Positions 15,087 through 55,133 of a DNA stretch of 64,000 nt are shown here, in pieces. Each line of letters begins with the position of its first letter. Positions within the stretch are counted from its first letter, which is position 1. The notes below the pieces were generated by a model that searched no databases, was not told the DNA's origin, and saw only the letters and a list, made by a program, of their open reading frames with translations. The position numbers were made by a program, and so were the translations under genes. Source of the DNA: Candidatus Omnitrophota bacterium (GTDB taxonomy: Bacteria > Omnitrophota > Gorgyraeia > JAHIPI01); NCBI GenBank assembly GCA_016783745.1, contig JADHVZ010000004.1, forward strand, positions 3,544 through 67,543. The letters are read 5' to 3'.

Positions 15087-15087
15087 A

Positions 15088-26344: not shown

Positions 26345-27214
26345 ATGAAGAGGGAAGTGAAGCTCGGCGATACATGGGTGGGGAGCGGACATCCATGTTT
26401 CTTTACCGCAGAGATAGGGATCAATCACAACGGCGATATAGCGATAGCAAAGAAACTTATTGATGTGGCAATACTTACGGGATGCAATGCCGTAAAGTTT
26501 CAGAAAAGGACGATCGAGGTCGTGTATTCGCCGGAAGATCTTGACCGTCCGAGGGAAAATCCGTTCGGGCCGACCAACAGGGATTTAAAGAGAAACCTCG
26601 AATTCGGAAAGAAAGAATATGAACAGATCGATAGGTATTGCAAAGAAAAAGGTATTATGTGGTATGCCTCCTGCTGGGATGAGCAATCGATCGACTTCAT
26701 GGAGGAGTTTGATCCGCCTTGTTATAAAATAGCTTCAGCTTCGCTTACCGATGATGACCTTCTTCGTCATACCCGCAAAACCGGCAAGCCGATAATACTA
26801 TCTACGGGCATGTCGTCTATGGGTCAGATCTACCACGCCGTAGAAGTGCTTGGAGAAGAAGGCCTAGTCATCATGCATTGCACTAGCACGTATCCGTCAA
26901 AACCCGATGAGTTAAACCTGAGGATGATAGAGACGCTTCATAGAGAGTTTAAGTGTCCTATCGGTTACTCCGGACACGAAGTCGGCCTGATGACTACTTT
27001 GGCCGCAAAGGTATTAGGGGCATCTATGCTTGAGCGCCATATAACGTTGGACCGCGCGATGTGGGGAAGCGACCAGGCGGCCTCGGTAGAATCTCACGGA
27101 ATGATGAGGTTGATCAAAGACATCCGTTCCGTGGAATCGGCGCACGGTGACGGCGAGAAGATCATTTATGAGAGCGAGATGCCTATTATGAAGAAGCTGC
27201 GAAGAAAAGGATGA
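26345..27214 (+). CDS. NeuB-family synthase paralog 4, short form lacking the C-terminal SAF domain
   Basis: 'CFFTAEIGINHNGDIAIAKKLIDVAILTGCNAVKFQKRT...ILSTGMSSMGQIYHAV...CTSTYPSKPDELNL...SGHEVG'. Only 289 aa, ending about 50 aa before where the SAF domain would start. RBS AAAAGGAGG precedes it. Confidence 0.75.
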   Translation: MKREVKLGDTWVGSGHPCFFTAEIGINHNGDIAIAKKLIDVAILTGCNAVKFQKRTIEVVYSPEDLDRPRENPFGPTNRDLKRNLEFGKKEYEQIDRYCKEKGIMWYASCWDEQSIDFMEEFDPPCYKIASASLTDDDLLRHTRKTGKPIILSTGMSSMGQIYHAVEVLGEEGLVIMHCTSTYPSKPDELNLRMIETLHREFKCPIGYSGHEVGLMTTLAAKVLGASMLERHITLDRAMWGSDQAASVESHGMMRLIKDIRSVESAHGDGEKIIYESEMPIMKKLRRKG

Positions 27215-30813: not shown

Positions 30814-31845
30814 ATGATGGCATATTTCAAAGGGCAAAAGCGCAGGTTATCGTTTATGGAAAAGTATATGACAGGCTTGAGGCCTGTCGATTGCCCCGTA
30901 TGCGGGAGCGGTAAGTCTACGGTGCTGGGGGCCAGAAGCAGGGGCGGGCTCAGTATAAATTCGGTGCTATGCGCCAACTGTTCGCTGGTGTACCTTAATC
31001 CCAAGCCCTTGCCGGAAAAATACCACGAGTTTTACGCCTCCGGAGACTACAGGCGTTTTTTGAATATTGTCAAGGGAGCAAAAACCGGCGATGATATCAA
31101 CAATTTCTTTACCGAAAAAAAGTTTATTGATAGAAAAGAATATGGCGCGCAAATAGCCAGAAAGTATTTCAGCAATATTTTGGTAAAGGACGACTTATAT
31201 TTCGATTTCGGATGCGATTCCGGCGGCATTATGGCGGGCGTGCGCGATGAAACAGGCTGCAGGATCATGGGTAATGAGCCCTCCAGGCTATGCGCGGATT
31301 TTATCCGCGAAAGACTTGGGGTCCGGATACTTTGCTGTGGCATGGAAGGCATGTGTGATTCCGATAAGGAAATATATAAAGGCAAGGCGAAAGCCGCATC
31401 ACTCATCGGCGTACTGGAACATGTCAATGACCCGATCGCATGTTTGAATATCGCCTATGGGGTACTCTCGGACGGGGGATTCCTCTACGTTGAGAGCCTC
31501 GATATCCTTAAACGCATGGAAAGGAATAAGGAGTCGGTTGAAGATGCGGCAACAATAGATCACCAATATTATTTCCATGAAGACGTGTATAAATATATGC
31601 TGCGATCCTGCAATTTTGAAGTTAAGAGATTCGATTATGACGAAAAAGGCAAGATCATGAGGGTGTTGGCTCAAAAGGTCGGGCCTGAATCGCCTAAAAA
31701 TAGATTTGAAGCAGCAGAAATAGTAGATAGGATCTCGCGGCTGAATAGCGAGGCAGCGCGCTATCAAGCGGGTATTTTCAGAAGGGCCGGAAAGAAGGCG
31801 GCACAAGCGGCAAGAAAGGTGCTAAAGTGGAAGTCACCCTCATAA
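30814..31845 (+). CDS. class I SAM methyltransferase with N-terminal zinc ribbon
   Basis: 'CPVCGSG...CANCS'; 'YFDFGCDSGGIMAGV' is motif I; 'ASLIGVLEHVNDP'. Confidence 0.7.
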   Translation: MMAYFKGQKRRLSFMEKYMTGLRPVDCPVCGSGKSTVLGARSRGGLSINSVLCANCSLVYLNPKPLPEKYHEFYASGDYRRFLNIVKGAKTGDDINNFFTEKKFIDRKEYGAQIARKYFSNILVKDDLYFDFGCDSGGIMAGVRDETGCRIMGNEPSRLCADFIRERLGVRILCCGMEGMCDSDKEIYKGKAKAASLIGVLEHVNDPIACLNIAYGVLSDGGFLYVESLDILKRMERNKESVEDAATIDHQYYFHEDVYKYMLRSCNFEVKRFDYDEKGKIMRVLAQKVGPESPKNRFEAAEIVDRISRLNSEAARYQAGIFRRAGKKAAQAARKVLKWKSPS

Positions 31846-33296
31846 ACGTAGGGGACATTATCGCGTACGGGCTCAGGTGCGTCTCCTCAAACCTGAAAAA
31901 GCACGGAATCGGTACGAGGATGATATTTATTCCCCCAAGATTTGCCGATATTTCGCACAAGAATCTCTTTGCCGGTATTGCGGAAGTAGCCGGAGATTCC
32001 GCCTTTATAGGCATATCGCTTATGGCGGGACAGTATAAGAGCGCCGTTTATTTGACCGAAAATTTAAAAAAAATAACGGATGCCCCGGTTTACTGGGGAG
32101 GGATACATCCGACCGTTTGCCCGGATGAAAGCATAAAGCACGCTGACGCTATCTGCATAGGGGAAGGCGAGGAAACCGCGGTTGCCCTGGCAAAGAGAAT
32201 GGGATCCGGAGGGGGTTTGGAAGGTCTGGACGGCATATGGTTCAAAAAGGACGGAGGGGTCGTAAAGAACCGCCAGAGACGCATCCCGGAGGATCTTGAT
32301 TCATTACCGCCTCCGGACTATAGTTTCGATACTCACTATGTGTTCGATTTTGATAAGGGGATCATGGCGCGTATGGACGATCATTATTTCTTTAAACACA
32401 GAGGGGACAGGTACACCACCCTTCCTACGCGCGGGTGCGCGATGAATTGCTCCTATTGCGTCAATGCGTATTTGCATGATATGTATCCGGGATCGAATAG
32501 ATTGAGAAGCAAAAGCGTCGATACGCTTATCTTGGAGTTAAAATGGGTAAAGGACAATCTGAAATTTATCCGGCAAATAAACTTCTATGACGATGATTTT
32601 CTTCGGTTACCTGTGGAATATATCCGTGATTTTGTCGATCGTTACAAGCGGGAGATCGATATGCCTCTGGTCTTGACGGGTATAAGCCCCGCCAATTTCA
32701 ACATGGAAAAACTGGAATTGATCAGCCGGAAGATCAGATTGGATAAATTACGGATGGGGGTTCAATCCGGCTCAGAGAGGACCAGGAAGGAAATATTCAA
32801 TCGGCCGCATTCCGATAAACAATTGCTTAGTGTGATCCAACAGTTATCCCGGGTAAGAAGAAAGGGCCGTATTCTCTACGACGTCATTTTAGATGTTCCT
32901 TGGGAGAATGAAAAAGATAAAATCGATACCTTCCGCTTTTTGATGAAGATCCCGAGGCCCTTTTGGCTCATTGTCTATTACCTGACATTCTATCCCGGTA
33001 CAGCGCTTTATGAAAGGGCACAGAAGGAAGGCGTATTGAATGATATCAATAACGGTTATTCCCAAAGGTATCAACGCCCGCGCACAAAGGACAAGTTAAA
33101 TAAGATCATTACCTTGACAGATAAGATGCCGCGGTGGTTTCTATGGCTTTTATTCTATACGAGAAAGGCCGCTTTAATTTCAGATGTTTTGATTTTTTCC
33201 GGGGATATGGTCATCGTTATCCATAATGCTTTACGGCGGATACTTACGGGAATAGCCCTAACCAAGAGAAGATTGAGTTTTAGACGGGCACAATGA
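31827..33296 (+). CDS. B12-binding (class B) radical SAM enzyme, paralog 1
   Basis: N-terminal cobalamin-binding-like Rossmann region 'VTLINVGDIIAYGLRCVSSNLKKHG', then 'TRGCAMNCSYCVNA' CxxxCxxC. Confidence 0.8.
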   Translation: MEVTLINVGDIIAYGLRCVSSNLKKHGIGTRMIFIPPRFADISHKNLFAGIAEVAGDSAFIGISLMAGQYKSAVYLTENLKKITDAPVYWGGIHPTVCPDESIKHADAICIGEGEETAVALAKRMGSGGGLEGLDGIWFKKDGGVVKNRQRRIPEDLDSLPPPDYSFDTHYVFDFDKGIMARMDDHYFFKHRGDRYTTLPTRGCAMNCSYCVNAYLHDMYPGSNRLRSKSVDTLILELKWVKDNLKFIRQINFYDDDFLRLPVEYIRDFVDRYKREIDMPLVLTGISPANFNMEKLELISRKIRLDKLRMGVQSGSERTRKEIFNRPHSDKQLLSVIQQLSRVRRKGRILYDVILDVPWENEKDKIDTFRFLMKIPRPFWLIVYYLTFYPGTALYERAQKEGVLNDINNGYSQRYQRPRTKDKLNKIITLTDKMPRWFLWLLFYTRKAALISDVLIFSGDMVIVIHNALRRILTGIALTKRRLSFRRAQ

Positions 33297-34744
33297 AGAA
33301 GGTAGTATTGACCAATATAGGCTGTTCTTCTGCCGGCGCAAAGCCGATCGCGACATCAATACTATCGGCCGTGCTGAAAAAAAGAGGCCATAGCGTCTCT
33401 CTATTTGATACCACATTTATGGATTTGGGGTTTATGCTCGACGGCGAGATATCCGACAGGCTGAAGATGTTTAAGCCCGTTGACTGGAAGGGGCGCGGTC
33501 TGGTAAGAGACAAAAATGTCGATGCCAAAGAGGAATTTATAAGATTCCTGGATAGGGAAAAGCCGGATGTCATCGCTGCAAGCGCTTTTAGCGATATGTA
33601 CAGGCATACAATGGAATTTTTGAGGATTGCCAAGGAAAGATACGGTATCCCCGTTATTATCGGTGGCATTCATGCCACACTGCTGCCCGATGAAGTCATA
33701 GCTGAAGATTGCGTAGACGCCCTTTGTGTCGGAGAGGGAGAAGATGCCCTGGTCGAGTATGTAGACTCACTTGACGGTAAAAAAGCGACAAGGACCGATA
33801 TAAAAAATCTATGGATCAAGCGCGATGGGTCCGTATATAAAAATTCCCTCCGCGAGCTTAAAGAACTTGATTCCCTCCCATTTATGGATTACTCCATTTA
33901 CGACGAAAGACAATTCCTGCGCCCGTTCGAAGGAAGGATATTACGAAGCGGCGACTACCAGGATAAACGCGGCTGCCCGCGCAGGTGCACCTATTGCGCA
34001 TATGCGGTGATAAATAAGGATATATACCCCGGGGGGAGGATCAAGTTTTATTCAGCGGAGAGATTTGCGGAAGAGGCAAAATACCTGAAGCAGGCTTTTG
34101 ACCTGGAATTCTTCAAAATATTCTCGGAGGATATATTCTTGAGGCCGGAGGATGATCTGGCGAGAATGTCGGAATTGTATTCAAAAAAAGTGGGGCTGCC
34201 TTTTACGACCAGCGCGCACCCGCTTTCCGTTACGGAAAAGAAGGCAGGGTTGTTAAAAAAGATGAATTGTGTCAGCGTTTCCGTGGCGCTGGAATGCGGC
34301 AACGCCCAATACCGCGAAAACATGCTGGGGCGTAAATATACAAACGGGCAGTTTGCCAGGAGCATTAAAATTTTACAGGAAGCCGGCATACGGGCGGTCT
34401 CTTTAAATATGATAGGCCTGCCGGGAGAGACGAGAAAGATGATATTCGAGACCATCGAGGTCAATAGAAAGGTAAAGCCGGATTTCGCGGACTTCGGATG
34501 TTTTTTTCCGTTTCGGGGAACGCCCCTGGGGGACACAGCGGTCAGGGACGGGTTAGCGTATCCCGGCGAAATAAAAAGATCCAGGAGCGACCACGGAAAA
34601 TCAATACTCCACATGCCTCACCTAGGGGCAGAGGAGATCAACGGCATAATGAAGATGCATCATTTTTATCTGCGTTATCCTAAGGCCCTGTGGCCGTTTT
34701 TCAGATTGCGCGAAAGGGATAATTTTTTTAAGGTAAAGGCGTAA
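33293..34744 (+). CDS. B12-binding (class B) radical SAM enzyme, paralog 2
   Basis: 'VVLTNIGCSSAGAKPIATSILSAVLKKRGH...IIGGIHATL', then 'RGCPRRCTYCAYA'. Confidence 0.8.
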   Translation: MKKVVLTNIGCSSAGAKPIATSILSAVLKKRGHSVSLFDTTFMDLGFMLDGEISDRLKMFKPVDWKGRGLVRDKNVDAKEEFIRFLDREKPDVIAASAFSDMYRHTMEFLRIAKERYGIPVIIGGIHATLLPDEVIAEDCVDALCVGEGEDALVEYVDSLDGKKATRTDIKNLWIKRDGSVYKNSLRELKELDSLPFMDYSIYDERQFLRPFEGRILRSGDYQDKRGCPRRCTYCAYAVINKDIYPGGRIKFYSAERFAEEAKYLKQAFDLEFFKIFSEDIFLRPEDDLARMSELYSKKVGLPFTTSAHPLSVTEKKAGLLKKMNCVSVSVALECGNAQYRENMLGRKYTNGQFARSIKILQEAGIRAVSLNMIGLPGETRKMIFETIEVNRKVKPDFADFGCFFPFRGTPLGDTAVRDGLAYPGEIKRSRSDHGKSILHMPHLGAEEINGIMKMHHFYLRYPKALWPFFRLRERDNFFKVKA

Positions 34745-34748
34745 ATAA

Positions 34749-36521
34749 ATGGCGATAGGCGAAAAAATAAGATTCTTGTGGAAGGCTATAAGGGTATATA
34801 AATATTTCGCCCTTTTTCTCTTTTTCATCATCCTGGCAGCCGCGCTGACGGAAACTATCGGCATCGGTATGGTCATGCCGTTCCTGGAAGTTGTTTTCGA
34901 TCCGGGCAGTTCGTCGGGTTCTGTCAGGTTCATGGAGCCTATTTTGAGTCGTTTTCCGGATGCGCACAGGCTTATGGTCATAGGCATATTACTTATGGGG
35001 TTGATCCTGATAAAAAATCTACTTATCATATTCAGGATCGGCCTTTCCACACATTTTGTTTTTCGCTTCAGAAGATTATGGCAGTGCGCGGTTATGGAGA
35101 AATACATGTATGCGGAATACTCTTTTCTCCTATCTCATAAACAAGGGTATCTGTTAAACAATCTTTTAATAGAACCTGGCAGAGCGGCAAAATCACTGCA
35201 GCAACTAATAGAGTTTTCCTCAAAGGCGATTTTAGCTTTTTCTCTTTATTGCCTGTTGATCATAGTAAGCTGGAAAGCTACTTTAAGCATTACTTTTGTG
35301 GGTCTTCTCATAGTCCTCCTGCTGAGTAAACCTACTTATAATTACGCTATCGGAGTCGGACGAAAAAAAGTATCACTTTCGCAGGATATAACTGCCATGG
35401 GCGCGGAGAATATCAGCGCGATCCGTCAGATAAAGATATTTTCTCTTGAAAACGATACTTGCCGCAGATTCAGGGAAAAGCTGGAGGACATCATTCGCGT
35501 AATGACGAAGTTCAACGTGATCCGCAGATTACCCAATCCAATCGCGGAGACACTCTTTATAGCAGGAGTAGTGTTGACACTCTTATACCTTAATTATTTT
35601 ACCTTAGTTCCACTGATGACCATAGCTCCGGTTATAGGGCTTTTTGTTGTCACTTCCCAGAGGTTTTTTCCGGTCGTTTCGCAATTGTTTGCCGAGCGGA
35701 TGAACATCCTTACGTTTATTCCTTCCCTGAAGGTGGCGTATGGTTTATATGATTCGAAAATACGAAACGAAGAATTGAAGACAGGGGAGGCTATTGACTC
35801 TATCAAGAGAGGCATTGAATTTAAAAACGTTTTTTTTACGTATAAAGGCTCACGGCCGCTTTTTGAGGATTTAAGCCTAATCATTCCGAAGGGAAAGACA
35901 ACAGCGATCGTAGGCCCGTCCGGTTCGGGCAAATCGACCATGGTCGACCTGTTGACCGGTTTTTTTAAGAAGCAGAACGGGGAGATATTAATAAACGGCA
36001 TAGACATCGATAGGATAAACCTGCGGTCATGCCGCAGGCTCATAGGATATGTCAGCCAGGATACGTTTCTCTTTAACGCTACGGTGAGAGAAAATATTAT
36101 TGCCGGAAGACCGGACGCGCCGGAGCGGGAGATGGTAATGGCCGCGAAGCAGGCTCACGCGGATGAGTTTATACGCCGGCTGCCGCAGGGATATGATACG
36201 GTGCTGGGTGACAGGGGGTTGAAGGTCTCCGGGGGGCAGCGCCAGAGGATCGCCATAGCAAGAGTTCTTATACGCAACCCGGAGGTGTTGATATTTGATG
36301 AAGCCACCAGCTCGCTTGACTCCGAATCCGAAAGGTTGATCCAGGAATCGATTGATTCGTTCGCGGGCAAAAAAACCATTATCGTCATATCTCACCGTTT
36401 CTCGACAGTGAAGAATGCCGACGTGATCTATGTTTTTGATAAAGGCCATATAGTGGAATCCGGGACATTTGAGGAGCTCGAGAAGAGTAAGGGCCGATTT
36501 TATCAGATGAATATCGTGTAA
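34749..36521 (+). CDS. ABC exporter, fused TMD-NBD half transporter (MsbA/PglK-like; candidate lipid-linked glycan flippase)
   Basis: Six predicted N-terminal TM helices. Walker A 'GPSGSGKST', signature 'LSGGQRQRIAIAR', Walker B 'LIFDEATSSLD'. Confidence 0.9.
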   Translation: MAIGEKIRFLWKAIRVYKYFALFLFFIILAAALTETIGIGMVMPFLEVVFDPGSSSGSVRFMEPILSRFPDAHRLMVIGILLMGLILIKNLLIIFRIGLSTHFVFRFRRLWQCAVMEKYMYAEYSFLLSHKQGYLLNNLLIEPGRAAKSLQQLIEFSSKAILAFSLYCLLIIVSWKATLSITFVGLLIVLLLSKPTYNYAIGVGRKKVSLSQDITAMGAENISAIRQIKIFSLENDTCRRFREKLEDIIRVMTKFNVIRRLPNPIAETLFIAGVVLTLLYLNYFTLVPLMTIAPVIGLFVVTSQRFFPVVSQLFAERMNILTFIPSLKVAYGLYDSKIRNEELKTGEAIDSIKRGIEFKNVFFTYKGSRPLFEDLSLIIPKGKTTAIVGPSGSGKSTMVDLLTGFFKKQNGEILINGIDIDRINLRSCRRLIGYVSQDTFLFNATVRENIIAGRPDAPEREMVMAAKQAHADEFIRRLPQGYDTVLGDRGLKVSGGQRQRIAIARVLIRNPEVLIFDEATSSLDSESERLIQESIDSFAGKKTIIVISHRFSTVKNADVIYVFDKGHIVESGTFEELEKSKGRFYQMNIV

Positions 36522-36582
36522 AGAGTTTTATGTGCCGTTCAGGTGGTTTGGAAGTACTTTTTTACAAAAGGAGGGTAAGTAG

Positions 36583-38061
36583 ATGAAAGAAAAAATTTTT
36601 AACGCGAAATGTACGTGCCGGAATTGTCCGGCAGCCGATTTTGGCGGGAAATCTGAAAAAGATCAAGGCGGATCAGAGGCCCGCGTCATGGTTGAGTGCA
36701 GGCGCAGGCCGGAGCTCGGTTTCTTTGATCCCACAAACGTTACCTTTGAAAAATGTTCGGAATGGATCAGCACGCCGTACGGCTATTTTTTAAAGGATAT
36801 GCGCGTGATGATCTTAGGCATTGACGGGTATCTGGGCTGGACTCTTGCATTATGGCTCGGCAAACTTGGATGCAAGGTGAGCGGGGTGGATAACTATAAC
36901 AGGCGCAACTGGGTGAAGGAAAGAGGGGCGCATACGGTTGTTCCAATATCGAGGATGACCGAAAGGCTTCACGCAGCGAAAGAGGTGCTGGGCATACATA
37001 TTAATTTCCGCGAGATAGATATCCTTAATAAGTCTTCCTTGAAGGAGTTTATCGATGAGATAAAACCGGAGGCCATAGTCCATTATGCCGAATGCCCAAG
37101 CGCGCCTTACAGCATGATAGACTTTGAGCATGCAAGCCTGGTTCAAACAAACAATGTGATAGGGACGTTGGGTGTTCTTTTCAGTATGCATGAAGTGGTG
37201 CCGGAAACATCGCTCATTAAATTGGGAACGATGGGGGAGTACGGGACGCCGTTATCGGGCAGGCCGCTTTTTGAGGGATTTTTTCCCGAGGACGCGGTCC
37301 TTCACTGGAAGAACCGCAAATGGAGCATGGGCGGGGAATTGACGCCGCGTTATCCCGCGTCTTTCTACCATATTACCAAAGTCCAGGATACCATAAACGT
37401 GCATCAATCCTGCAGGTATTGGCAGCTCCGTTCATATGACGTGATGCAGGGGGTCATATACGGAGTGCACACCGAGCAGGTTGCCGCCGACCCGCGGCTG
37501 CGGACGCGCCTGGATATCGACGAATGGTTCGGGACGGTAGTCAACCGGTATGTCGCTCAGGCGATCATCGGTTTCCCGCTTACGATTTTCGGGGGAGGAG
37601 GCCAGACGCGCGGTTTCATCTCTCTGGAAGACGCTATGCAGTGCATAACCCGGCTCATCGCGAAACCGCCCGCGCCAGGTGAGTACGGCGTGATAAATCA
37701 GATGTCCGGATATTACAACGTGAAGCAGCTTGCCGAAACGGTAGCGAAAATCGGCTCAGAAGAATTCGATTTTGACGTAAAGATCCAGAGGGTGGAGAAC
37801 CCGCGGATAGAGGCAAACAGGCACACCTTTGAGCCGATATTTGACAAATTGCCGGATGAGTTCGGGTTTATTCAAAGCAACACTTTAGAAAATGAAATAA
37901 GGAGGATGTTTAAACTTTTGTCTCAGCCCCATATAAAGAGCAGGATCGAGGAAAAAAGGCATCTTATCATGCCCAGGACGTGGTGGTCGGGCGTAAAGAA
38001 GGAGGTCAAGAGGATCGAGATGCTGAATAACTCAATCCGGGAAACGGTAGCTAAGCAATGA
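36583..38061 (+). CDS. UDP-sulfoquinovose synthase family enzyme (SQD1/SqdB/Agl3-like extended SDR) with about 60-aa Cys-containing N-terminal extension
   Basis: Long collinear similarity to SQD1 as I recall it. 'RVMILGIDGYLGWTLALWL' matches RVMVIGGDGYCGWATALHL; 'CPSAPYSMID' matches QRSAPYSMID; 'NNVIGTLGVLFSMHE', 'LIKLGTMGEYGTP', 'SFYHITKVQD' (YxxxK), 'QGVIYGV', 'GGQTRGFISLEDAMQCI' and 'VENPRIEA' also match. The N-terminus 'KCTCRNCPAADFGG' is extra. Confidence 0.75.
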   Translation: MKEKIFNAKCTCRNCPAADFGGKSEKDQGGSEARVMVECRRRPELGFFDPTNVTFEKCSEWISTPYGYFLKDMRVMILGIDGYLGWTLALWLGKLGCKVSGVDNYNRRNWVKERGAHTVVPISRMTERLHAAKEVLGIHINFREIDILNKSSLKEFIDEIKPEAIVHYAECPSAPYSMIDFEHASLVQTNNVIGTLGVLFSMHEVVPETSLIKLGTMGEYGTPLSGRPLFEGFFPEDAVLHWKNRKWSMGGELTPRYPASFYHITKVQDTINVHQSCRYWQLRSYDVMQGVIYGVHTEQVAADPRLRTRLDIDEWFGTVVNRYVAQAIIGFPLTIFGGGGQTRGFISLEDAMQCITRLIAKPPAPGEYGVINQMSGYYNVKQLAETVAKIGSEEFDFDVKIQRVENPRIEANRHTFEPIFDKLPDEFGFIQSNTLENEIRRMFKLLSQPHIKSRIEEKRHLIMPRTWWSGVKKEVKRIEMLNNSIRETVAKQ

Positions 38062-39185
38062 AAGTCGAATTCTATAAACACAATATCGGTGAAGAAGAGA
38101 AGAGGAAGGCCTTGGAAGTCCTCGATGGCATATTCCTAACTACAGGAAAATACGTAGAGGAGTTCGAAAAGACATTTTCGGATTATCTCGGTGTAGAATT
38201 TGCCGTAGGCGTTTCATCCTGCACGGCTGCGCTTCATCTTGCTCTCATGCATTACGGCATCGGCGCGGGAGACGAAGTCATTACAACACCGCTTACATTT
38301 ATAGCTACGGCAAATGCAATTCTTTATAGCGGAGCAAAACTTGTATTTGTTGATGTTGAAAAAGAGACAGGGTTGATAGATCCCGAAAAGGTGGAAGCTG
38401 CCGTAACGAAGCGCACAAAAGCTATTATACCCGTGCACCTCTACGGGGTGATGGCGGACATGAAAAGGTTGCGTAAAGTCGCCGATAAATACGGATTAAA
38501 AATCATAGAGGATTCAGCGCACTGCATCGAAGGCGAGAGAGACGGCATAAGGCCGGGCGAGTCAGGCGATGCGGCCTGTTTCAGTTTTTACGCGACAAAG
38601 AATATAACAAGCGGAGAAGGCGGCGCGATAACTGTTCACACAAAAGAGGAGAAAGACAGGCTTTACAAATTACGTTCCCACGGCATGTCCAGGGAAGCAT
38701 ACGGCAGATATGAAAGTCTTTACAGGCACTGGGACATGGAGACACTGGGCTGGAAATACAACATGAACAACATACAGGCCGCCCTATTATTAAATCAGAT
38801 CAAGAATGTAGAAAAATATTGGAAAAGAAGAGAAGAGATCTGCCGGCGGTACGAGTCGGCCTTTAAGGATGAGAAAAAGATACGGCTTCTAACCATACCT
38901 CCGCATACAAAGAGCGCGCGGCATCTGATCACGATTTTGGTAGATCCCCAGACAAGGGATGAGATCCTCGCAAAACTCCAAAAAAGGGATATAGGCGTTG
39001 CGGTAAATTTCAGGCCTATACACCTTTTGACATACTATCGGCAGACATACGGCTATAAAATAGGCGCGTTTCCCGCAAGCGAGGAGATAGGGGGCGGGAC
39101 TATCAGCCTACCGCTCTATCCCCAACTCACAGATGAGGAGATCGAATACGTTATCAAATCGGTAAAAGAGGCGATCAGAAAATAG
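38058..39185 (+). CDS. DegT/DnrJ/EryC1/StrS-family PLP-dependent sugar aminotransferase
   Basis: 'GVSSCTAALHLAL...GDEVITTPLTFIATANAI...AIIPVHLYG...EDSAHC...FSFYATKNITSGEGG', with the catalytic Lys in 'ATKN'. Confidence 0.85.
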   Translation: MKVEFYKHNIGEEEKRKALEVLDGIFLTTGKYVEEFEKTFSDYLGVEFAVGVSSCTAALHLALMHYGIGAGDEVITTPLTFIATANAILYSGAKLVFVDVEKETGLIDPEKVEAAVTKRTKAIIPVHLYGVMADMKRLRKVADKYGLKIIEDSAHCIEGERDGIRPGESGDAACFSFYATKNITSGEGGAITVHTKEEKDRLYKLRSHGMSREAYGRYESLYRHWDMETLGWKYNMNNIQAALLLNQIKNVEKYWKRREEICRRYESAFKDEKKIRLLTIPPHTKSARHLITILVDPQTRDEILAKLQKRDIGVAVNFRPIHLLTYYRQTYGYKIGAFPASEEIGGGTISLPLYPQLTDEEIEYVIKSVKEAIRK

Positions 39186-40115
39186 ATGAGTTATTTAAGC
39201 GATATAAAAAAGGTGATACGCACCAACGAAGCTATTGAGTTCCCGAAAGTCATCCTCATAGACAACTTCAACGGATGCAATCTGCGCTGTTCAATATGCG
39301 ACCACAAAAATATGGAAAAATACAGGCGCATTCAAAAAATGGATCTCGAGTTGTATGAAAAGGTCATAGATGAGATAGCCGTGATGGATCCTGATGCCAG
39401 GGTATGGGAGATATTTTTTGGTGACCCGTTTTTATGTAAAGATATGCCTATGAGGATAAAATATGCGAAAGATAAAGGCCTTAAAGACGTAGTTCTCAAT
39501 ACAAACGGCGCATTGATGACTCCTGAGAGAGCTAAACCCGTTATCGAAGCCGGTCTGGATGCCATGTATGTGGGCATTGACGCTACGAAGGCCGGGACCT
39601 ATGATAAGATAAGAGTAGGGGGAGATTTTAATAAAACCGTGGAAAATACGCTGAGCTACAGAGATCTATTGAAAAAATACGGCACGGAAAACCAAAAGCT
39701 ATATGTTCAATTTGTGGTCTGCGGCATAAACAGCGATGAAGCGGAAGGTTTCAAAGATTTTTGGACGAAGGAAAAAATTAATGTTAAGATCCGGCCAAAA
39801 GTGAGCTGGGCGGGCCTGGTAGAGGCCATGAATCTACGTGACAACAAGGGCCTGACCCGCAAACCTTGTTACTGGCTCATGCGGACGATCAATATATGCG
39901 CCGACGGTGAGGTTACGCTTTGCTCGGTAGATGTCCATTGCCATGTAAAGTGCGGCAATGCGGCGGATAAGACTATAAAAGAGATATGGGACGGCAAACT
40001 CAAAGAATACCGCGCCATGCATAATGCGGGCAGGTATGATGCGCTGCCGCCCATGTGCAGAGATTGCGGAGACTGGCAATCTACCTATGCGGAGTTTTTT
40101 AAGCCCGCGCTTTAA
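39186..40115 (+). CDS. radical SAM enzyme with SPASM/twitch-type domain, paralog 3
   Basis: 'FNGCNLRCSICDH' is CxxxCxxC, followed by 'GDPFL'. The C-terminal cysteines are 'CYWLMRTINICADGEVTLCSVDVHCHVKCGN...CRDCGDW'. Confidence 0.85.
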   Translation: MSYLSDIKKVIRTNEAIEFPKVILIDNFNGCNLRCSICDHKNMEKYRRIQKMDLELYEKVIDEIAVMDPDARVWEIFFGDPFLCKDMPMRIKYAKDKGLKDVVLNTNGALMTPERAKPVIEAGLDAMYVGIDATKAGTYDKIRVGGDFNKTVENTLSYRDLLKKYGTENQKLYVQFVVCGINSDEAEGFKDFWTKEKINVKIRPKVSWAGLVEAMNLRDNKGLTRKPCYWLMRTINICADGEVTLCSVDVHCHVKCGNAADKTIKEIWDGKLKEYRAMHNAGRYDALPPMCRDCGDWQSTYAEFFKPAL

Positions 40116-40133: not shown

Positions 40134-41111
40134 ATGCCTGAAAAAGAGATAAGCCACACTAAAGAGAGATACGCTATCAAGGGGGGCGCCGAAGAATTTC
40201 CCTTGATGCTCATATTGTCACTTGTTTATGTCTGTAACAGCAAGTGCCCCAATTGTCCGTATAGCAACTGCGATATTCAGAAAACTTATGACGATGCGCC
40301 GGTAATGCCGGAAGATATCTTCAGAAGGATCGTTGAAGAATCCGGACGATACAATGCCTATCTCAGAATAACAGCCGGCGGTGAGCCTATGCTCCACCCA
40401 AAGGCCGTCGACTTGATGGCCTACGCTAAAAGGCAAGGCACGAGGATAGGGTTGATCACGAATGGCTCACTATTCGACAGGAAGAAACTAACTTCTCTTA
40501 TAGAAGCCGGCGTAGATAATATCGAATTCAGCATCGATGCCGGCGACGAGGAGACATATAAGAGGGTGAGGCCCGGCCTGGATTGGAAAAGAGTGAATGA
40601 AAATGTCCGAATGGCGGCTGATATCAGAGATCATCTGAAGGCGCCTACCCGGATTATTGTCAGCGTCATAAACCAAAAGGACGTTGACATAAAAGCGGCC
40701 GATGGTTATTGGGGGAAAATCGCGGATAAGGTTCAGATAAGGAAATACTTGACCTGGGGCTACAACAAAGATCATTCGGCGGATCCCACACCTTATCTTC
40801 CTCTCGAAGAAGCGGTTCCGTGCCCATGGCTTTTTGAAAGGTTTAACATAGATACGAGGGGTGATGTTACCGTATGCGGCGAAGATATTGCTTTCGGCGA
40901 AAAATTCGGCAATGTTATGGAACACTCAATAAAAGAACTGTGGCGGCACCCCAAAATGGAATATTTCAGAAAGACGCATTTAGGCAAAAAAGGCGCCGAG
41001 ATCCCCATATGCGGCAAGTGTGATGATTGGCAGTACCGTTCATGGAATTATAATTACTGGAAAGTCGTCGATGATGCCGAGAAGACTAAAGGACTGAGAT
41101 CGAAGAGATGA
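40134..41111 (+). CDS. radical SAM enzyme with SPASM/twitch-type domain, paralog 4
   Basis: 'CNSKCPNCPY' is CxxxCxxC, followed by 'GEPML'. The C-terminal cysteines are 'CPWLFERFNIDTRGDVTVCGED...CGKCDDW'. Confidence 0.85.
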   Translation: MPEKEISHTKERYAIKGGAEEFPLMLILSLVYVCNSKCPNCPYSNCDIQKTYDDAPVMPEDIFRRIVEESGRYNAYLRITAGGEPMLHPKAVDLMAYAKRQGTRIGLITNGSLFDRKKLTSLIEAGVDNIEFSIDAGDEETYKRVRPGLDWKRVNENVRMAADIRDHLKAPTRIIVSVINQKDVDIKAADGYWGKIADKVQIRKYLTWGYNKDHSADPTPYLPLEEAVPCPWLFERFNIDTRGDVTVCGEDIAFGEKFGNVMEHSIKELWRHPKMEYFRKTHLGKKGAEIPICGKCDDWQYRSWNYNYWKVVDDAEKTKGLRSKR

Positions 41112-42028
41112 AGACTCATAAAAAAGTATTCTTAATAACGGGCGGATTCGGGTTTTTAGGCCCGCATCTCGTTCAACTTTTACTTAAGAAGGTCAGTCAT
41201 TGCGCGATGTATGTAGTAGGCAGGAAGAAGGCCAAGCTTATTTGGAAAGGAGACTCAAGGGTCAAATTCATTTACGGTGATTTGCGGGATGCCGGACTTT
41301 GGGCCGGATTGCCTAAGGACATCACGCATGTCTTTCATTTGGCCGCCGTTATTCCCTGGGGAAAGATGGATCAAAATAGGACGGACGTATTTATGGATAA
41401 CGTCCTGCCTATTTCGCATCTAATCGGATCCAGCCGGGCCTGGCCCGGGTTGAGGCAGGTTATATATTCTTCATCTATCTCGGTCTATGCGAGGACAAAT
41501 CGATTTATAAGAGAAGGTTCGCTTAAGGATCCGCCGAATGTTTACGGCGCTGCCAAGCTGGAAGGAGAGATCCTGTTGCAGAATTTAATAGCAAGGGGGA
41601 TCAAGGTCACTTACTTAAGGTATAGCTCTATTTACGGACATGGGCATCACCCAGGGACTGTCCTGCCGGTCATGCTCGATCGGGCTTTAAAAAGAAAAGA
41701 GGTCCTTGTCTATGGAACGGGCAATCGAACACAGGATTTTCTTTATTGCGAAGATGCGGCAAACGCAAATCTTCTGGCTTATGAGAAGAGCGCGAACGGA
41801 GTATTTAACATAGGATGCGGGGTGCCGGTTTCTATGAGGGAACTGGCTCATGCTATCAGCGATGTTTTTACGAATGGCAAAGCGAAGCTTATGCGGCAGC
41901 CCGCGAAAAAAAACCGCGAGCCGGGTTATAAAATCGACATTTCCAGAGCAAAGAGGGCATTGGGTTACCGGCCGACGCGAATAAAAGAAGGTTTGCGAAG
42001 ACTAAAGAAGGATATGGAGAGGTATTAG
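41108..42028 (+). CDS. NAD-dependent sugar epimerase/dehydratase (extended SDR)
   Basis: 'VFLITGGFGFLGPHL' Rossmann motif and 'YGAAKLEGE' YxxxK dyad. Confidence 0.8.
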   Translation: MKTHKKVFLITGGFGFLGPHLVQLLLKKVSHCAMYVVGRKKAKLIWKGDSRVKFIYGDLRDAGLWAGLPKDITHVFHLAAVIPWGKMDQNRTDVFMDNVLPISHLIGSSRAWPGLRQVIYSSSISVYARTNRFIREGSLKDPPNVYGAAKLEGEILLQNLIARGIKVTYLRYSSIYGHGHHPGTVLPVMLDRALKRKEVLVYGTGNRTQDFLYCEDAANANLLAYEKSANGVFNIGCGVPVSMRELAHAISDVFTNGKAKLMRQPAKKNREPGYKIDISRAKRALGYRPTRIKEGLRRLKKDMERY

Positions 42029-43819
42029 GTGGATTTTCATCGCGTGTTAGTAACTGCAGTAGGCGGAAACATCGGCCAGGGGGTCATCAAGGCCCTCAGG
42101 GCTGGAAAAAGGCACTACCACATCGTCGGGGTGGATATGGAACCTCTCTCGGCGGGTTTTTCGCTTGTCGACAGCTATTATCGGATGCCGAGGACGGGAG
42201 ACCCGAGTTTCAATGATAAATTAATCGAAATCGCGCGACGGGAAAAAATAGAAGGGATTTATGTCTGCTCTCCGACTGAGCTTGAACCCTTTAGCATCTA
42301 TAAGGAAGAGCTGGAAAGAGAGTTGGGCCTCACGGTATTCGTGAACCCTATAGATGTGATCCGCATCGGCTCTGATAAGCTTGAGACGGCCGATTTCCTG
42401 CAAGGGGAGGGACTGCCTTATCTTGAAGCCGTGTCCGCTCAGGATGAAAAGGGCTTGAGCCGGCTGATACATAAATATAATTGGCCTTTACTGATGAAGC
42501 CGCGCAAAGGCTTTAGCTCAAGGGATCTGTTTGTCGTGGATTCCATGGAAAAGATAAAGGCTGTGCGGATGCTGGTTTCCGATTCGATAGTCCAAAGATA
42601 TCTACCGGACGATAACACCGAATATACCGCGGGCACGGTCTCCGGTCCGGACAAGAAAGTCCGAGCGTCCATAACCCTGCACAGGGACCTCATCCAGGGC
42701 ACTTCATATAGAACGGAGTTGGTGCAGGATAGAGATATTACCGATCAGGTCGTAAGCATAGTCGAGGCTTTAGGCGCCGTAGGCGTCTGTAATATCCAAT
42801 TCCGTTTACATGACGGAAAGGCCTATGTATTCGAGATCAATCCGCGCTTTTCCGGCACAAGCGGCATACGCTATCTTTATGGTTTTAACGATCCCGAGAT
42901 GGCCTTCGAACTCTTTCGGCTGGGTGTCGATATCGGTCAACCGGAGCTGCGTCCGGCAGCGGTCCTCAGGTATTGGAACGAGATCTTTATATCAGGAGCT
43001 ACGTTTGACAAACTTCATGACGGGACGCAAGGACACCGGGGCATCCAGAAGGTGATCAAAAGGCCTATTATTGAGAGATCCGCGCGCGATCTTGACCTTT
43101 CCCATGAGCAGGAGAAGAGCTCTTTAGACAGCATGGCCGATAGGTATTTCACCCAAAAGGCCCTCGGGCCGGATGACAAACAGATGGGATTTATTATAGA
43201 CGAGATCTTAACTGTCTGCCGCGGGCCAAAGGTCTTAAAATTGGGCTATGGTAACGGCCATTCAGTCCTGAAACTTGTAGATATGGGATTTGACGTGACC
43301 GTAGTGGAGGGTGCTTCTCAACTGGCAAATGAGTGCCGTGACGGCTTCGGCGGAAGGGTAAAAATAGCCCATTCTCTTTTTGAAGAATTTAAACCGGAAG
43401 AATATTATGATACTATCATCGCGTCATGCGTGCTTGAGCATGTGAAAGATCCGAAGGAGCTTTTACACTTACTTACAGCCTGGCTTGCGCCTGAAGGAAG
43501 TCTACATATTGCGGTTCCAAATGCTCTGTCTTTGCATAGAAGGGTCGGGCTTAAAATGGGTTTGCTGCGGGAACCTATGGAACTCAGTCCCCAGGAACTT
43601 GAAGTAGGGCATCGCCGTTCATACACGGTAGATACTTTGAAGGCGGAGCTTGATAGTGCCGGGCTGAATGTGAATTTTATCAAAGGTATATTTTTGAAGC
43701 CTCTCTCAAGCGGGCAGATGATGGACTGGCCCCATGATCTTCTAGAGGGCTATAATAAACTAAGTGATGAATTGCCGGAATATACCGCGTTTATTTACGG
43801 AAGTTGTTCGAAAAAATAA
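42029..43819 (+). CDS. fusion: N-terminal ATP-grasp ligase domain plus C-terminal class I SAM methyltransferase domain (GTG start)
   Basis: ATP-grasp: 'WPLLMKPRKGFSSRDLFVV...GVCNIQFRLHDGKAYVFEINPRFSGTSG'. MTase: 'VLKLGYGNGHSVLKLVDMGFDVTVVEGAS...TIIASCVLEHVKDP'. Confidence 0.75.
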   Translation: MDFHRVLVTAVGGNIGQGVIKALRAGKRHYHIVGVDMEPLSAGFSLVDSYYRMPRTGDPSFNDKLIEIARREKIEGIYVCSPTELEPFSIYKEELERELGLTVFVNPIDVIRIGSDKLETADFLQGEGLPYLEAVSAQDEKGLSRLIHKYNWPLLMKPRKGFSSRDLFVVDSMEKIKAVRMLVSDSIVQRYLPDDNTEYTAGTVSGPDKKVRASITLHRDLIQGTSYRTELVQDRDITDQVVSIVEALGAVGVCNIQFRLHDGKAYVFEINPRFSGTSGIRYLYGFNDPEMAFELFRLGVDIGQPELRPAAVLRYWNEIFISGATFDKLHDGTQGHRGIQKVIKRPIIERSARDLDLSHEQEKSSLDSMADRYFTQKALGPDDKQMGFIIDEILTVCRGPKVLKLGYGNGHSVLKLVDMGFDVTVVEGASQLANECRDGFGGRVKIAHSLFEEFKPEEYYDTIIASCVLEHVKDPKELLHLLTAWLAPEGSLHIAVPNALSLHRRVGLKMGLLREPMELSPQELEVGHRRSYTVDTLKAELDSAGLNVNFIKGIFLKPLSSGQMMDWPHDLLEGYNKLSDELPEYTAFIYGSCSKK

Positions 43820-47090: not shown

Positions 47091-48128
47091 ATGATGAAGA
47101 CGGTATTACTTACAGGCGGAGCGGGATTTATGGGCAGCAACGTAGTCAAACACATTTACAATAAATATCCTGATTATAAAATAATCATCCTGGACGCCTT
47201 GACCTATGCCAGTGATATCGAGAACCTTCCGGTGAACATCAATGAAAACAGCGACAACAGGATCGTCTTCTGGTACGGCAATGTGAGGAACGGCGAGCTT
47301 GTAGATAGCCTTGTCTCTCAATCCGATATTGTCCTGCACTTTGCCGCCGAGACCCATGTAACGCGCTCCATATACGACAATTTTTTGTTCTTTGAAACAG
47401 ACGTGTTAGGGACTCAAGCAGTGGCCAATGCGGTCGTAAAGTACAAGGATAGAGTAGAGAGATTTATTCACATCTCCACATCCGAGGTCTACGGAACCGC
47501 TATGAAGGAAGTGATGGACGAAGAGCATCCGTTGATGCCGATGACTCCTTATGCCTCGGCGAAGGCAGGCGCCGACAGGCTGGTCTACTCCTACTGGAAG
47601 ACCTATGATATACCGGCTACGATCATCCGCCCCTTCAACAATTACGGCCCCTTCCAACATCTTGAAAAGGCGGTCCCGAGGTTCATAACCAGTTGTATGT
47701 TGGACGAGCCCCTCAGGGTCCACGGAGACGGAAGCGCGTCAAGGGACTATGTATTTGTGGAGGATATGTGCAGGGCCGTTGATATTGTGATGCACGCCGA
47801 TATCGAAAAAGTCAAAGGCGAGACCTTTAATGTGGCGTCCGGAACGCACCGCTCTATTCTGTCTATCGCGTATGACGTCGTAAGGTCCATGGGAAAGGAC
47901 GGATCAGCGATCACTTTCGTCGGAGACCGTCCCGGCCAGGTCTTCAGGCATACGGGAAGCGTCATAAAGGCGAAGAATATATTAAACTGGAGCCCCACCG
48001 TGGCTTGGGAGGAAGGACTGGAAAGCACGATAAAGTGGTATATGGACAATAGGAGTTGGTGGGAGAAGCAGCTGTGGATGAGGACGGTCCCGGTCATAAC
48101 TAGTATGGGTAAAAAGGAAATACATTGA
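47091..48128 (+). CDS. dTDP/NDP-sugar 4,6-dehydratase family enzyme (RfbB-like)
   Basis: 'VLLTGGAGFMGSNVV...ILDALTYASDIENL...HFAAETHVTRSI...YASAKAGADRL...IIRPFNNYGPFQHLEKAVPRFI' closely follow the RfbB motif order. Confidence 0.8.
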   Translation: MMKTVLLTGGAGFMGSNVVKHIYNKYPDYKIIILDALTYASDIENLPVNINENSDNRIVFWYGNVRNGELVDSLVSQSDIVLHFAAETHVTRSIYDNFLFFETDVLGTQAVANAVVKYKDRVERFIHISTSEVYGTAMKEVMDEEHPLMPMTPYASAKAGADRLVYSYWKTYDIPATIIRPFNNYGPFQHLEKAVPRFITSCMLDEPLRVHGDGSASRDYVFVEDMCRAVDIVMHADIEKVKGETFNVASGTHRSILSIAYDVVRSMGKDGSAITFVGDRPGQVFRHTGSVIKAKNILNWSPTVAWEEGLESTIKWYMDNRSWWEKQLWMRTVPVITSMGKKEIH

Positions 48129-55115: not shown

Positions 55116-55133
55116 TTGTTCAAGGGAGAATTT

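Follow-up and report, generated by a model that had tools for sequence, protein, structure and literature searches.

UDP-sulfoquinovose synthases oxidize a UDP-hexose at C4, form a 5,6-ene by dehydration, add sulfite onto C6 and re-reduce C4. Sulfite itself is toxic. The enzymes of this type in Arabidopsis (SQD1) and in cyanobacteria and Rhodobacter (SqdB) share the extended SDR fold, and the plant synthase physically associates with a moonlighting FMN/Fe-S enzyme, a partner thought to aid delivery of the sulfur donor. Agl3 of Sulfolobus acidocaldarius is a prokaryotic synthase that provides a sulfo-sugar for N-glycans rather than for lipids (PMC4388408). Both recombinant SQD1 and Agl3 showed low activity in vitro, with Agl3 assayed at 1–100 mM sulfite, and the way in which sulfite is delivered to these synthases in vivo has been stated to be unknown (PMC4388408).

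Here we describe a relative of these enzymes that is encoded within the 64,000-nt stretch of Omnitrophota DNA analysed in this study (hereafter, the window). The comparison with its relatives offers a testable answer to the question of sulfite supply, in the form of a five-gene cassette without a canonical reductase.

The window gene and its catalytic domain

The gene is a complete ORF of 492 aa at 36583..38061 (+ strand), exactly as placed by an earlier, sequence-only reading of this DNA, and encodes an N-terminal Cys domain followed by an SQD1-type SDR catalytic domain (residues 73–492; 36799..38061, + strand). The whole catalytic domain is collinear with SQD1, residues 12–396 of the Arabidopsis enzyme corresponding to residues 73–472 of the window protein (phmmer, E=2.3e-81), and the NAD motif GIDGYLGW aligns with GGDGYCGW of SQD1. 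The protein matched PF01370 (E=6.6e-16), in keeping with an extended SDR fold, and the top PDB matches to its AF2 model were the SQD1 entries 1qrr and 1i24 (Foldseek; E ∼1e-34, TM 0.86 relative to the target, 38% identity). Among solved homologues SQD1 ranks best by a wide margin, and the SQD1/SqdB-type call made in the earlier reading held up against the GalE alternative that it had raised: the GalE and dTDP-glucose dehydratase models scored only 20.2 bits (cutoff 262) and 35.6 bits (cutoff 365), respectively, and GalE/RmlB-type sequences in the PDB matched with E of 1e-4 or worse.

The Thr/Tyr/Lys triad, which had been singled out for checking, is kept as Thr216 (37228–37230), Tyr262 (37366–37368) and Lys266 (37378–37380; all + strand), the counterparts of SQD1 T145, Y182 and K186, and is invariant in 23/23 members of the N-domain clade as well as in 58/58 canonical relatives. 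The SQD1-specific active-site residues M146, E148, Y149, H183 and Q209 are likewise kept (M217, E219, Y220, H263 and Q289), and catalytic residues were retained across all 23 clade members examined. As in Agl3, the catalytic Tyr and Lys are accompanied by equivalents of His95 and Met145; the former, H167 (in ‘VHYAEC’), is near-invariant.

The window protein nevertheless differs from SQD1/SqdB in being only 38% identical, in carrying an additional 72-aa domain with four Cys (which Agl3 lacks as well), in having insertions in the lid loops (residues 226–254), and in having Pro in place of Arg101. The lid loops are clade-specific. Its score against the NCBIfam UDP-sulfoquinovose synthase equivalog NF041015 was 429.5 bits, below the cutoff of 575; another clade member (L018) scored 417 bits and canonical relatives 550–580 bits. 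Arg101 is essential in Agl3, where the R101A mutant is inactive (PMC4388408), and the corresponding residue, Pro172 in the window protein, is invariably Pro in the N-domain clade. Replacement of Arg101 was rejected as an argument against synthase function: Pro also occupies this position in 55/58 canonical relatives from prokaryotes, including some with scores of 550–580 bits against NF041015, and therefore Arg101 is not family-defining in prokaryotes. Cys171 (‘ECPSAPY’) was considered as a clade-specific active-site thiol and discarded, being Ile in archaeal members and Cys in some canonical relatives.

Taken from sequence comparison, these features support assignment of the window gene to the SQD1/SqdB/Agl3-type SDRs as part of a distinct clade. 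The predicted conversion of UDP-glucose with sulfite into UDP-sulfoquinovose by the window enzyme finds indirect support in sulfate adenylyltransferase genes that are linked to the synthase gene, both in the window and in its relatives. The product would be a 6-sulfo-6-deoxy-hexose nucleotide, made from a presumed UDP-sugar substrate and presumably destined for the surrounding glycan-modification locus; the window gene does not lie in a sulfolipid operon, and no SqdX/SQD2-type partner of the window synthase was identified.

A conserved N-terminal cysteine domain

The N-terminal domain comprises residues 1–72 (36583..36798, + strand) and holds four Cys that are invariant or near-invariant: Cys12 (36616–36618), Cys15 (36625–36627), Cys39 (36697–36699) and Cys58 (36754–36756; all + strand). 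Two strings quoted in the sequence-only reading, KCTCRNCPAADFGG and VMVECRRRP, were found in the window protein. That reading had put the extension at ∼60 aa; it is indeed real coding sequence, but 72 aa long. A Shine-Dalgarno sequence, AGGAGG (36569..36574, + strand), could be read 8 nt 5′ of the ATG at 36583, in contrast to Met73, which is preceded only by a poorly spaced AAGGA. Residues 1–72 are conserved at the protein level in hundreds of homologues from many phyla that cover 97–100% of the query, and the region is also conserved at the DNA level in a syntenic locus (L086, described below). The domain is therefore confirmed as genuinely translated and conserved, and a start-codon artefact is excluded.

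The domain was predicted confidently both in the full-length model and alone, with pLDDT ∼90 over residues 11–20 and 41–70. A profile search returned zero Pfam matches and Foldseek no PDB fold match (best E ∼5), and the arrangement of one CxxC plus two single Cys in place of two CxxC knuckles, together with these null results, does not correspond to a zinc ribbon or rubredoxin-like domain. Literature searches found no prior description of the domain or of the cassette discussed below. The suggestion that the extension targets the enzyme fared poorly, as the domain has neither signal nor transmembrane character and is conserved in bacteria and archaea alike. Metal binding, in turn, is plausible because the four Cys are invariant, and the four-Cys core in the window is probably a structural, possibly metal-binding, module.

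Most clade members carry in addition a 12-residue loop within the N-domain that contains a fifth Cys (VDFRxCGQS). The domain has diverged faster in reduced forms than in full forms.

Gene neighbourhood in the window and its relatives

The synthase gene lies in a + strand array that includes four NeuB paralogues, several CMP-sugar cytidylyltransferases and a UDP-GlcNAc 2-epimerase, which bears out the earlier description of a nonulosonic-acid locus. Its presence beside Neu/Leg-type genes had been thought unexpected; the position is real but is common to Omnitrophota relatives (L086 and L087) rather than specific to the window. The closest relative of the window gene is that of L086 (78% identity), which resides in a syntenic locus anchored by an ABC exporter of 590 aa (34749..36521, + strand) and, further upstream, by APH, methyltransferase and B12-rSAM genes.

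Gene order in L086 is cysD-cysN-PDE-gene-trx, where PDE denotes a protein of the alkaline-phosphatase (AP) superfamily, and all four partner genes are missing from the window. Where L086 has ∼3.4 kb with cysD, cysN and PDE, a spacer of 61 nt separates the ABC exporter from the synthase gene in the window (36522..36582, + strand); the spacer may be a deletion scar, since it is weakly similar to both L086 junctions. Within the gene, a 36-nt in-frame deletion relative to L086, with its junction at 36640..36655 (+ strand), has removed the codons K-V-D-F-R-A-C-G-Q-S-V-E, which is exactly the fifth-Cys loop. The copy in the window is derived: it has been stripped of the loop and of all partners.

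Downstream, the slot held by thioredoxin (Trx) in relatives is filled by a DegT/PseC-like aminotransferase (38058..39185, + strand), the start of which overlaps the synthase stop (ATGA). We rejected this protein as a dedicated partner for a 4-amino-6-sulfo sugar: the adjacency is unconserved in relatives, and its PseC/LegC-like character suits the nonulosonic-acid branch, to which it probably belongs. A window ‘Sulfatase’ of the AP superfamily (56546..57715) was similarly set aside as a replacement for PDE, having no detectable PDE-family similarity and arylsulfatase-like matches. The sole sulfur-activation gene remaining in the window is a Sat-type ATP sulfurylase in the same array (53783..54916, + strand; NCBIfam 460 bits, cutoff 387). 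The PF01507 (PAPS_reduct) domain was found neither in the window protein nor anywhere else in the window, which has no APS reductase. Since GT2 genes are repeatedly found downstream of the synthase gene in relatives, a GT2 glycosyltransferase (48125..49057, + strand) may be the enzyme that uses the sulfo-sugar nucleotide. A GT-C (PMT_2, ArnT-like) protein (50429..52561, + strand) may transfer a lipid-linked sugar in the periplasm.

The N-domain marks a separate clade spread over many bacterial and archaeal phyla, and its gene neighbourhood is strongly patterned. In a metagenome census, PDE was found beside the gene of loop-bearing clade members in 60/64 loci and Trx in 42/44; in species genomes, PDE abuts upstream and Trx downstream in most N-domain loci. 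This arrangement occurred in 0 of ∼58 canonical loci, and no PDE, Trx or CysDN cassette has been described for Agl3. Sulfate adenylyltransferase was nearby in only 13/29 (∼45%) of the metagenome loci with enough flanking sequence (CysDN in 11/29, Sat in 2/29), a frequency that counts against the relay proposed below. The cassette CysD and CysN pass their NCBIfam cutoffs. PDE retains the metal ligands of the AP superfamily, has a Ser in the nucleophile position and has no conserved Cys. The CxxC motif of the cassette Trx is retained, two cassette thioredoxins being CxxS. Stand-alone N-domain proteins were also found, directly 3′ of PDE.

Loss of the loop and loss of the partners go together. 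Every loop-less lineage (the window, L003/L004 and L008, representing at least two independent origins) is without PDE and Trx, and a further locus that has lost the loop Cys (L097) has no intact PDE or Trx. Exceptions were seen among loop-bearing loci, with L107, L121 and L144 lacking PDE and L121 and L159 lacking Trx.

Sulfite supply to the synthase

The full cassette may be compared with CysH, the thioredoxin-dependent APS/PAPS reductase. A bona fide CysH adjoins the synthase in three canonical loci, one of them ordered CysH-Sat-SqdB; therefore, the reductase holds an equivalent slot there, beside sulfate adenylyltransferase and synthase. CysH is absent from the cassette, in which the only PF01507 protein among the relatives is CysD. 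The net chemistry (APS + reduced Trx → AMP + sulfite + oxidised Trx) would nonetheless be the same, and the Cys inventory would be similar, comprising further Cys besides one exposed segment that contains Cys-Gly. Any such likeness would be functional rather than one of membership: unlike CysH, the cassette has no PAPS_reduct fold and no C-terminal ECGLH Cys, its nucleotide-binding candidate is an AP-superfamily protein, and its Cys carrier forms one polypeptide with the enzyme that consumes the sulfite. Of this CysH-like set, only the four-Cys core is present in the window. Coupling of a synthase to proteins that might deliver its sulfur donor also recalls the plant system, although the fused domain and dedicated operon partners of the clade are wholly different proteins from the plant partner.

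In the common form of the clade, which is also the ancestral one, the fifth-Cys loop is exposed and the gene lies within cysD-cysN-PDE-gene-trx. We propose that this cassette serves as a private sulfite supply line. In this scheme APS would be made by CysDN; PDE, which is two-metal nucleotide phosphodiesterase-like, would bind APS and move its sulfo group onto the loop Cys, giving S-sulfocysteine; and Trx would then reduce the loop Cys and free sulfite beside the synthase active site. Unrelated parts would in this way perform the reaction of a CysH-type APS reductase. The window enzyme most likely uses free sulfite made elsewhere, with APS from the Sat at 53783, because its loop is deleted and cysD, cysN, PDE and trx are absent.

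Our preferred overall reading, that the gene is an SQD1-type synthase served by a cassette relay in its full forms and that the window copy is a stripped derivative, is one that we hold to be reasonably probable. The more specific proposal, in which PDE, the five-Cys N-domain and Trx constitute a new, non-CysH APS reductase feeding the fused synthase and the window is a natural loss-of-relay variant, is put forward tentatively, with somewhat less than even confidence. Phosphorus is the usual point of attack for phosphodiesterases of the AP superfamily; with APS, such an attack would yield sulfate and not sulfo transfer, and for this reason the PDE step is, to our knowledge, without precedent. 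Overall, the sequence-only interpretation of an SQD1-type enzyme with an unusual N-terminus is partly supported.

If true, the relay would represent a further way of reducing sulfate for assimilation and an instance of substrate channelling through domain fusion; around the synthase it combines sulfate activation, thioredoxin, a Cys carrier domain that is new and an unassigned enzyme of the alkaline-phosphatase family. It would give a toxic intermediate a channel of its own, and this channel would be widespread in anaerobic bacteria and archaea (among them Asgard, Thermoplasmatota and Bathyarchaeia). Sulfo-sugar glycans would be extended to Omnitrophota, Dehalococcoidia, Planctomycetes and Asgard as well as to further little-studied lineages. 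The stripped copy in the window and the independent ones in Chloroflexi serve as evolutionary controls, the window copy being a natural knock-out for the relay idea. Even a conservative reading leaves a defined new subfamily of sulfo-sugar synthases with an uncharacterised, fold-orphan Cys domain.

Such a conservative reading would treat the N-domain as a structural zinc or Fe-S stabiliser only and PDE and Trx as unrelated neighbours (for example, PDE might trim a lipid carrier or a by-product nucleotide, and Trx might maintain cysteines in the reduced state), with all forms using free sulfite. The survival of four invariant Cys even in reduced forms, the compact fold predicted for the domain, the resemblance of the Cys-less PDE to an ordinary hydrolase, and the presence of nearby sulfate activation genes in only ∼45% of loci all agree with it. 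We nevertheless consider it unlikely, as it leaves unexplained the joint loss of the loop Cys, PDE and Trx (in Omnitrophota also of CysDN) on at least two occasions, the stand-alone N-domains that still sit behind PDE, and the canonical synthases, which never occur with PDE or Trx and sometimes have CysH in the slot.

It is very unlikely, in our estimation, that the clade adds another sulfur nucleophile, such as a persulfide or thiol provided through the Cys domain and Trx, and so makes a 6-thio or other 6-substituted sugar. The recurrent linkage is to CysDN/Sat, that is, to activation of oxidised sulfur, rather than to cysteine desulfurases or rhodaneses, and all SQD1/Agl3 catalytic residues except Arg101 are kept. 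In favour of such a nucleophile are the score below the equivalog cutoff, the clade-specific lid loops and the missing Arg101 equivalent, although relatives scoring at the equivalog cutoff also have Pro at that position; sulfur-relay systems, moreover, typically pair Cys-rich domains with thioredoxin-like partners.

Loss of the loop and of four partner genes, along with the faster divergence of the N-domain, might also be expected of a decaying, non-functional relic left after the sulfite-supply partners had gone. This has a slim chance at best of being correct, given an intact frame of 492 codons, retention of all catalytic residues together with the four Cys of the core, the strong Shine-Dalgarno sequence, the ATGA overlap with the next gene, the ATP sulfurylase in the array, and the same architecture in an independent reduced lineage (L003, L008). 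Scarcely credible is a mis-called start, with the extension a longest-ORF artefact and translation beginning at Met73, where SQD1 homology also begins: it is ruled out by the Shine-Dalgarno placement, the conservation across phyla and the L086 DNA comparison, and would open a gap of 278 nt in an array whose genes are otherwise tightly packed.

A GalE-like SDR commonly follows the clade genes, and may be the UDP-sulfoquinovose 4-epimerase that is still missing for sulfofucose biosynthesis.

The synthase and its N-terminal domain

The gene at 36583..38061 on the forward strand encodes 492 residues, exactly the frame reported in the sequence-only reading, and residues 73–472 of its product align with residues 12–396 of Arabidopsis UDP-sulfoquinovose synthase (SQD1) without rearrangement (phmmer E=2.3e-81), as that reading had proposed. 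Pfam recognised generic SDR domains alone, from residue 75 on; the best NCBIfam model by far was the UDP-sulfoquinovose synthase equivalog, on which the protein scored 429.5 bits, under the cutoff of 575. For an AlphaFold2 model obtained from a 112-sequence alignment (mean pLDDT 80.8, pTM 0.85), the best PDB matches were the SQD1 entries 1qrr and 1i24 (E ∼1e-34, TM 0.86 relative to target, 38% identity), with epimerases and dehydratases 17 orders of magnitude behind.

Catalytic roles have been described for residues of SQD1 and of Agl3, its Sulfolobus acidocaldarius counterpart (PMC4388408). These residues are kept (T145, M146, E148, Y149, Y182, H183, K186 and Q209 in SQD1 numbering), both in the clade that shares the N-terminal domain and in canonical SqdB/Agl3-like relatives that lack it. 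Arg101 is essential in Agl3 (PMC4388408), and its position is occupied by Pro172 in the window synthase. This substitution was dropped as a warning sign: Pro is also present in 55 of 58 canonical relatives, sampled members of which score 550–580 bits on the same equivalog, and Pro172 is therefore not diagnostic. Clade-specific differences, including insertions, were concentrated in the lid loops (window residues 226–254), which are also low-confidence stretches of the model. We take it as established that the protein is an SQD1-type enzyme and that its active site is intact; it would most likely make UDP-sulfoquinovose or a closely related 6-sulfo-hexose. Three homologues of 845–855 aa (P0016, P0027 and P0127) carry a LAGLIDADG intein of ∼337 aa between KLG and TMGEYG, which puts the catalytic Thr (SQD1 T145) at the +1 extein position; the equivalent site in the window lies at residues 215/216 (nt 37227/37228).

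The N-terminal extension proved to be real. A Shine-Dalgarno sequence, AGGAGG, lies 8 nt 5′ of ATG 36583, while Met73 has a badly spaced AAGGA alone, and hundreds of ∼500-aa database proteins (66–78% identity) span 97–100% of the query, including the N-terminus; one identical entry is labelled as a Candidatus Omnitrophica MAG. In alignments of 25 and 112 sequences, C39 and C58 never vary and C12 and C15 do so rarely if at all; the motifs that hold these Cys within residues 1–72 are TCWNCPA, AEC(K/R)RRPELG and F(E)EC(P)EW. The domain folds confidently both in the full-length model and alone (pLDDT ∼90 for residues 11–20 and 41–70). No Pfam match was found in residues 1–72 and no Foldseek match in the PDB (best E ∼5), and a profile search of 1.84 billion proteins returned 43 representatives only, these being fragments of the same family and a few stand-alone 68–108-aa proteins with the same Cys pattern. 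The window synthase carries a conserved, fold-orphan four-Cys domain. The enzyme is of a known kind, here in a new form, and no prior description of the domain, or of the gene cassette in which relatives occur, was found in the literature.

Relatives with and without the fifth-cysteine loop

When prokaryotes were scanned at one genome per species, the loci fell into two clean groups. Approximately 25 loci match from residue 1–7, N-terminal domain included, at 55–76% identity, and come from Dehalococcoidia, Anaerolineae, Thermodesulfobacteriota, Omnitrophota, Fibrobacterota and Planctomycetes among Bacteria and from Asgard, Thermoplasmatota, Bathyarchaeia and Woesearchaeota among Archaea; a protein search gave a Nitrospinae member (P0071, locus L005). 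Approximately 55 loci match from about residue 73 only (41–48% identity) and hold canonical genes of 385–405 aa. The N-domain clade was monophyletic on a long stem in a neighbour-joining tree of the catalytic domain.

Gene neighbourhoods were compared by calling ORFs in all fetched loci, followed by phmmer searches. Most N-domain loci have a ∼430-aa PF01663 ‘Phosphodiest’ gene (PDE) of the alkaline-phosphatase (AP) superfamily abutting 5′ and a ∼105-aa thioredoxin (Trx) gene abutting 3′, an arrangement absent by these methods from all canonical loci examined. Among another 80 loci, sampled independently from metagenomes, PDE lay within 4.5 kb upstream in 60 of the 64 with room, and Trx lay downstream in 42 of 44; in three of the 60, cysD-cysN-PDE forms a divergently transcribed unit. 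Of the 29 loci whose upstream sequence extended for 4.5 kb or more, 13 had a sulfate adenylyltransferase (CysDN 11, Sat 2). The five-gene cassette cysD-cysN-PDE-synthase-trx is the same in L001, L086 and L087. CysD and CysN of L001 pass the NCBIfam cutoffs, and this CysN has no APS kinase domain, so its product is APS; the cassette contains no CysH. In three canonical loci the synthase gene adjoins that of a bona fide thioredoxin-dependent APS/PAPS reductase, in one case as CysH-Sat-SqdB.

NCBIfam assigned the PDE to no family, and among solved structures phosphonoacetate hydrolase comes closest, though it matches weakly (E=5e-5). The PDE keeps Ser at the nucleophile position (S49) and has no conserved Cys; the conserved D197/H201, D247/H248 and H386 look like two-metal ligands. 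Stand-alone N-domain proteins are encoded directly 3′ of PDE in L088, L089 and L090, and the PDE/N-domain pairing is therefore independent of fusion to the synthase. Cassette thioredoxins keep WCxxC, bar two from Dehalococcoidia (L006, L084) with CxxS; these are monothiol, which would alter resolution of a mixed disulfide.

Most clade members carry a ∼12-residue loop, (N/K)VDFRxCGQ(S/A), with a fifth conserved Cys, and the presence and loss of this loop go together with those of the PDE and Trx genes and, in the window lineage, of CysDN as well. It is missing in the window protein, L003/L004 (P0090) and L008, the very N-domain loci that have neither PDE nor Trx, which also have W13 replaced by R/Q; in L097 the loop Cys is mutated (VDLHPSGQS), and no intact PDE or Trx is present. 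The tree of catalytic domains places the window synthase as sister to P0002, which has the loop, and in it L003 and L008 are nested among loop-bearing Dehalococcoidia, so that the combined loss occurred at least twice.

L086, the locus of P0002 (78% identity), is syntenic with the window through APH, methyltransferase, B12-binding radical-SAM, radical-SAM and 590-aa ABC exporter genes, after which L086 has the cassette and the window a 61-nt spacer, the synthase and DegT. When the two were aligned as DNA, each junction had homology to its left and right, and the window showed a clean in-frame 36-nt deletion that removes K-V-D-F-R-A-C-G-Q-S-V-E. A relaxed search of the whole 64 kb found no Trx, PDE, CysDN or PAPS_reduct-fold protein (a fold that would cover CysH); a Sat-type ATP sulfurylase lies at 53783..54916 (+) in the same array as the synthase. 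Directly after Trx, 39 aa encoded by L086:11944-12060 match the C terminus of the window GT-C transferase (52450..52561); relative to L086, the window thus has ∼14 kb, from DegT through the GT-C body, separating the synthase from that point.

At matched catalytic-domain identity, N-domains without the loop are ∼10–15 points less similar to loop-bearing ones than the latter are to each other, a faster divergence that fits changed or relaxed constraint outside the four-Cys core. The metagenome fragments P0135, P0129 and P0124 have degenerate N-domains without the loop Cys, and P0135 again has W13 replaced by R, as in the window and L003; loop loss may be recurrent and tied to the W13 substitution.

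Possible routes of sulfite supply

The Agl3 paper stated that the mechanism of sulfite transfer in vivo is unknown (PMC4388408). For the loop-bearing forms we propose a relay that we regard as plausible, if short of probable: CysDN would supply APS, the PDE, as a nucleotide-binding two-metal protein, would help the sulfo group of APS pass to the loop Cys to give S-sulfocysteine, and Trx would free sulfite beside the synthase. This would be the chemistry of CysH carried out with unrelated parts, with the toxic intermediate channelled, and the cassette may represent a sulfite supply system of a new kind. The main weakness is the PDE step, since AP-superfamily phosphodiesterases usually act on phosphorus rather than sulfur. 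Consequently, under the relay, the window enzyme must draw on free sulfite from a reductase whose gene would lie outside the window; its N-domain would persist as a structural, possibly metal-binding, module.

In the main rival, the metal domain would have a structural role alone and its neighbours would be there by coincidence; this seems unlikely to us, as it leaves unexplained both the repeated co-loss and the stand-alone N-domains beside PDE. Use of another sulfur nucleophile, yielding a 6-thio sugar, is improbable given the linkage to sulfate activation. Slightly less credible still is that the window gene is a decaying relic, for its frame is intact, its residues are conserved, and it retains a Shine-Dalgarno sequence and translational coupling. 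A mis-called start, to which we give almost no credence, is refuted by the AGGAGG at ATG 36583 and by homologues conserved through the N-terminus.

The surrounding sugar locus

The sugar nucleotide would be destined for a glycan built by the very large surrounding locus, which contains four NeuB genes, many cytidylyltransferases, radical-SAM enzymes, GT2 and a GT-C transferase; the NeuB and cytidylyltransferase genes agree with the nonulosonic-acid setting recognised from sequence alone. The NeuB paralogues (5474..6493, 15028..16101, 18654..19664 and 26345..27214, all +) lie in one array with at least five CTP_transf_3 cytidylyltransferases and a UDP-GlcNAc 2-epimerase, which suggests several different nonulosonic acids from one locus. 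Inside the sugar-biosynthesis array are five radical-SAM/SPASM genes (14091..15086, 17592..18626, 39186..40115, 40134..41111 and 63380..64000) and three B12-binding radical-SAM genes (31827..33296, 33293..34744 and 49005..50165), a set suggesting that the sugars undergo unusual C-methylation or are tailored by radical chemistry in some other way. A single 596-aa ORF (42029..43819) fuses an ATP-grasp domain with a PylC-like N-terminus to a class I methyltransferase. Together with the hexapeptide acyltransferase and AsnB-type amidotransferase genes next in line, this ORF has the look of a module that decorates a sugar acid with an amide or amino acid. Just 3′ of the ATP sulfurylase lie pyruvate kinase (55116..56561) and an arylsulfatase-like AP-superfamily gene (56546..57715), the product of which is unrelated to the cassette PDE family.

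A GalE-like SDR is often found 3′ of SQD1-like genes, in the N-domain and canonical clades alike (L001:9853-10803, L003:9521-10426, L087:5627-6628 and many other loci), with weaker similarity to window 41108..42028 and 11730..12707. As a candidate UDP-sulfoquinovose 4-epimerase, this SDR would make UDP-6-sulfofucose. Sulfofucose, for which no biosynthetic pathway is known, is present in Thermoplasma N-glycans (PMC12421959), and the N-domain clade gene occurs in five Thermoplasmatota loci (L012, L015, L017, L018 and L021). Lastly, a ∼1000-aa ORF (99..3104) with He_PIG, Big_9, cadherin-like and PKD Ig-type repeats and a laminin-G domain encodes a probable surface adhesin, possibly a glycosylation target of the downstream locus.
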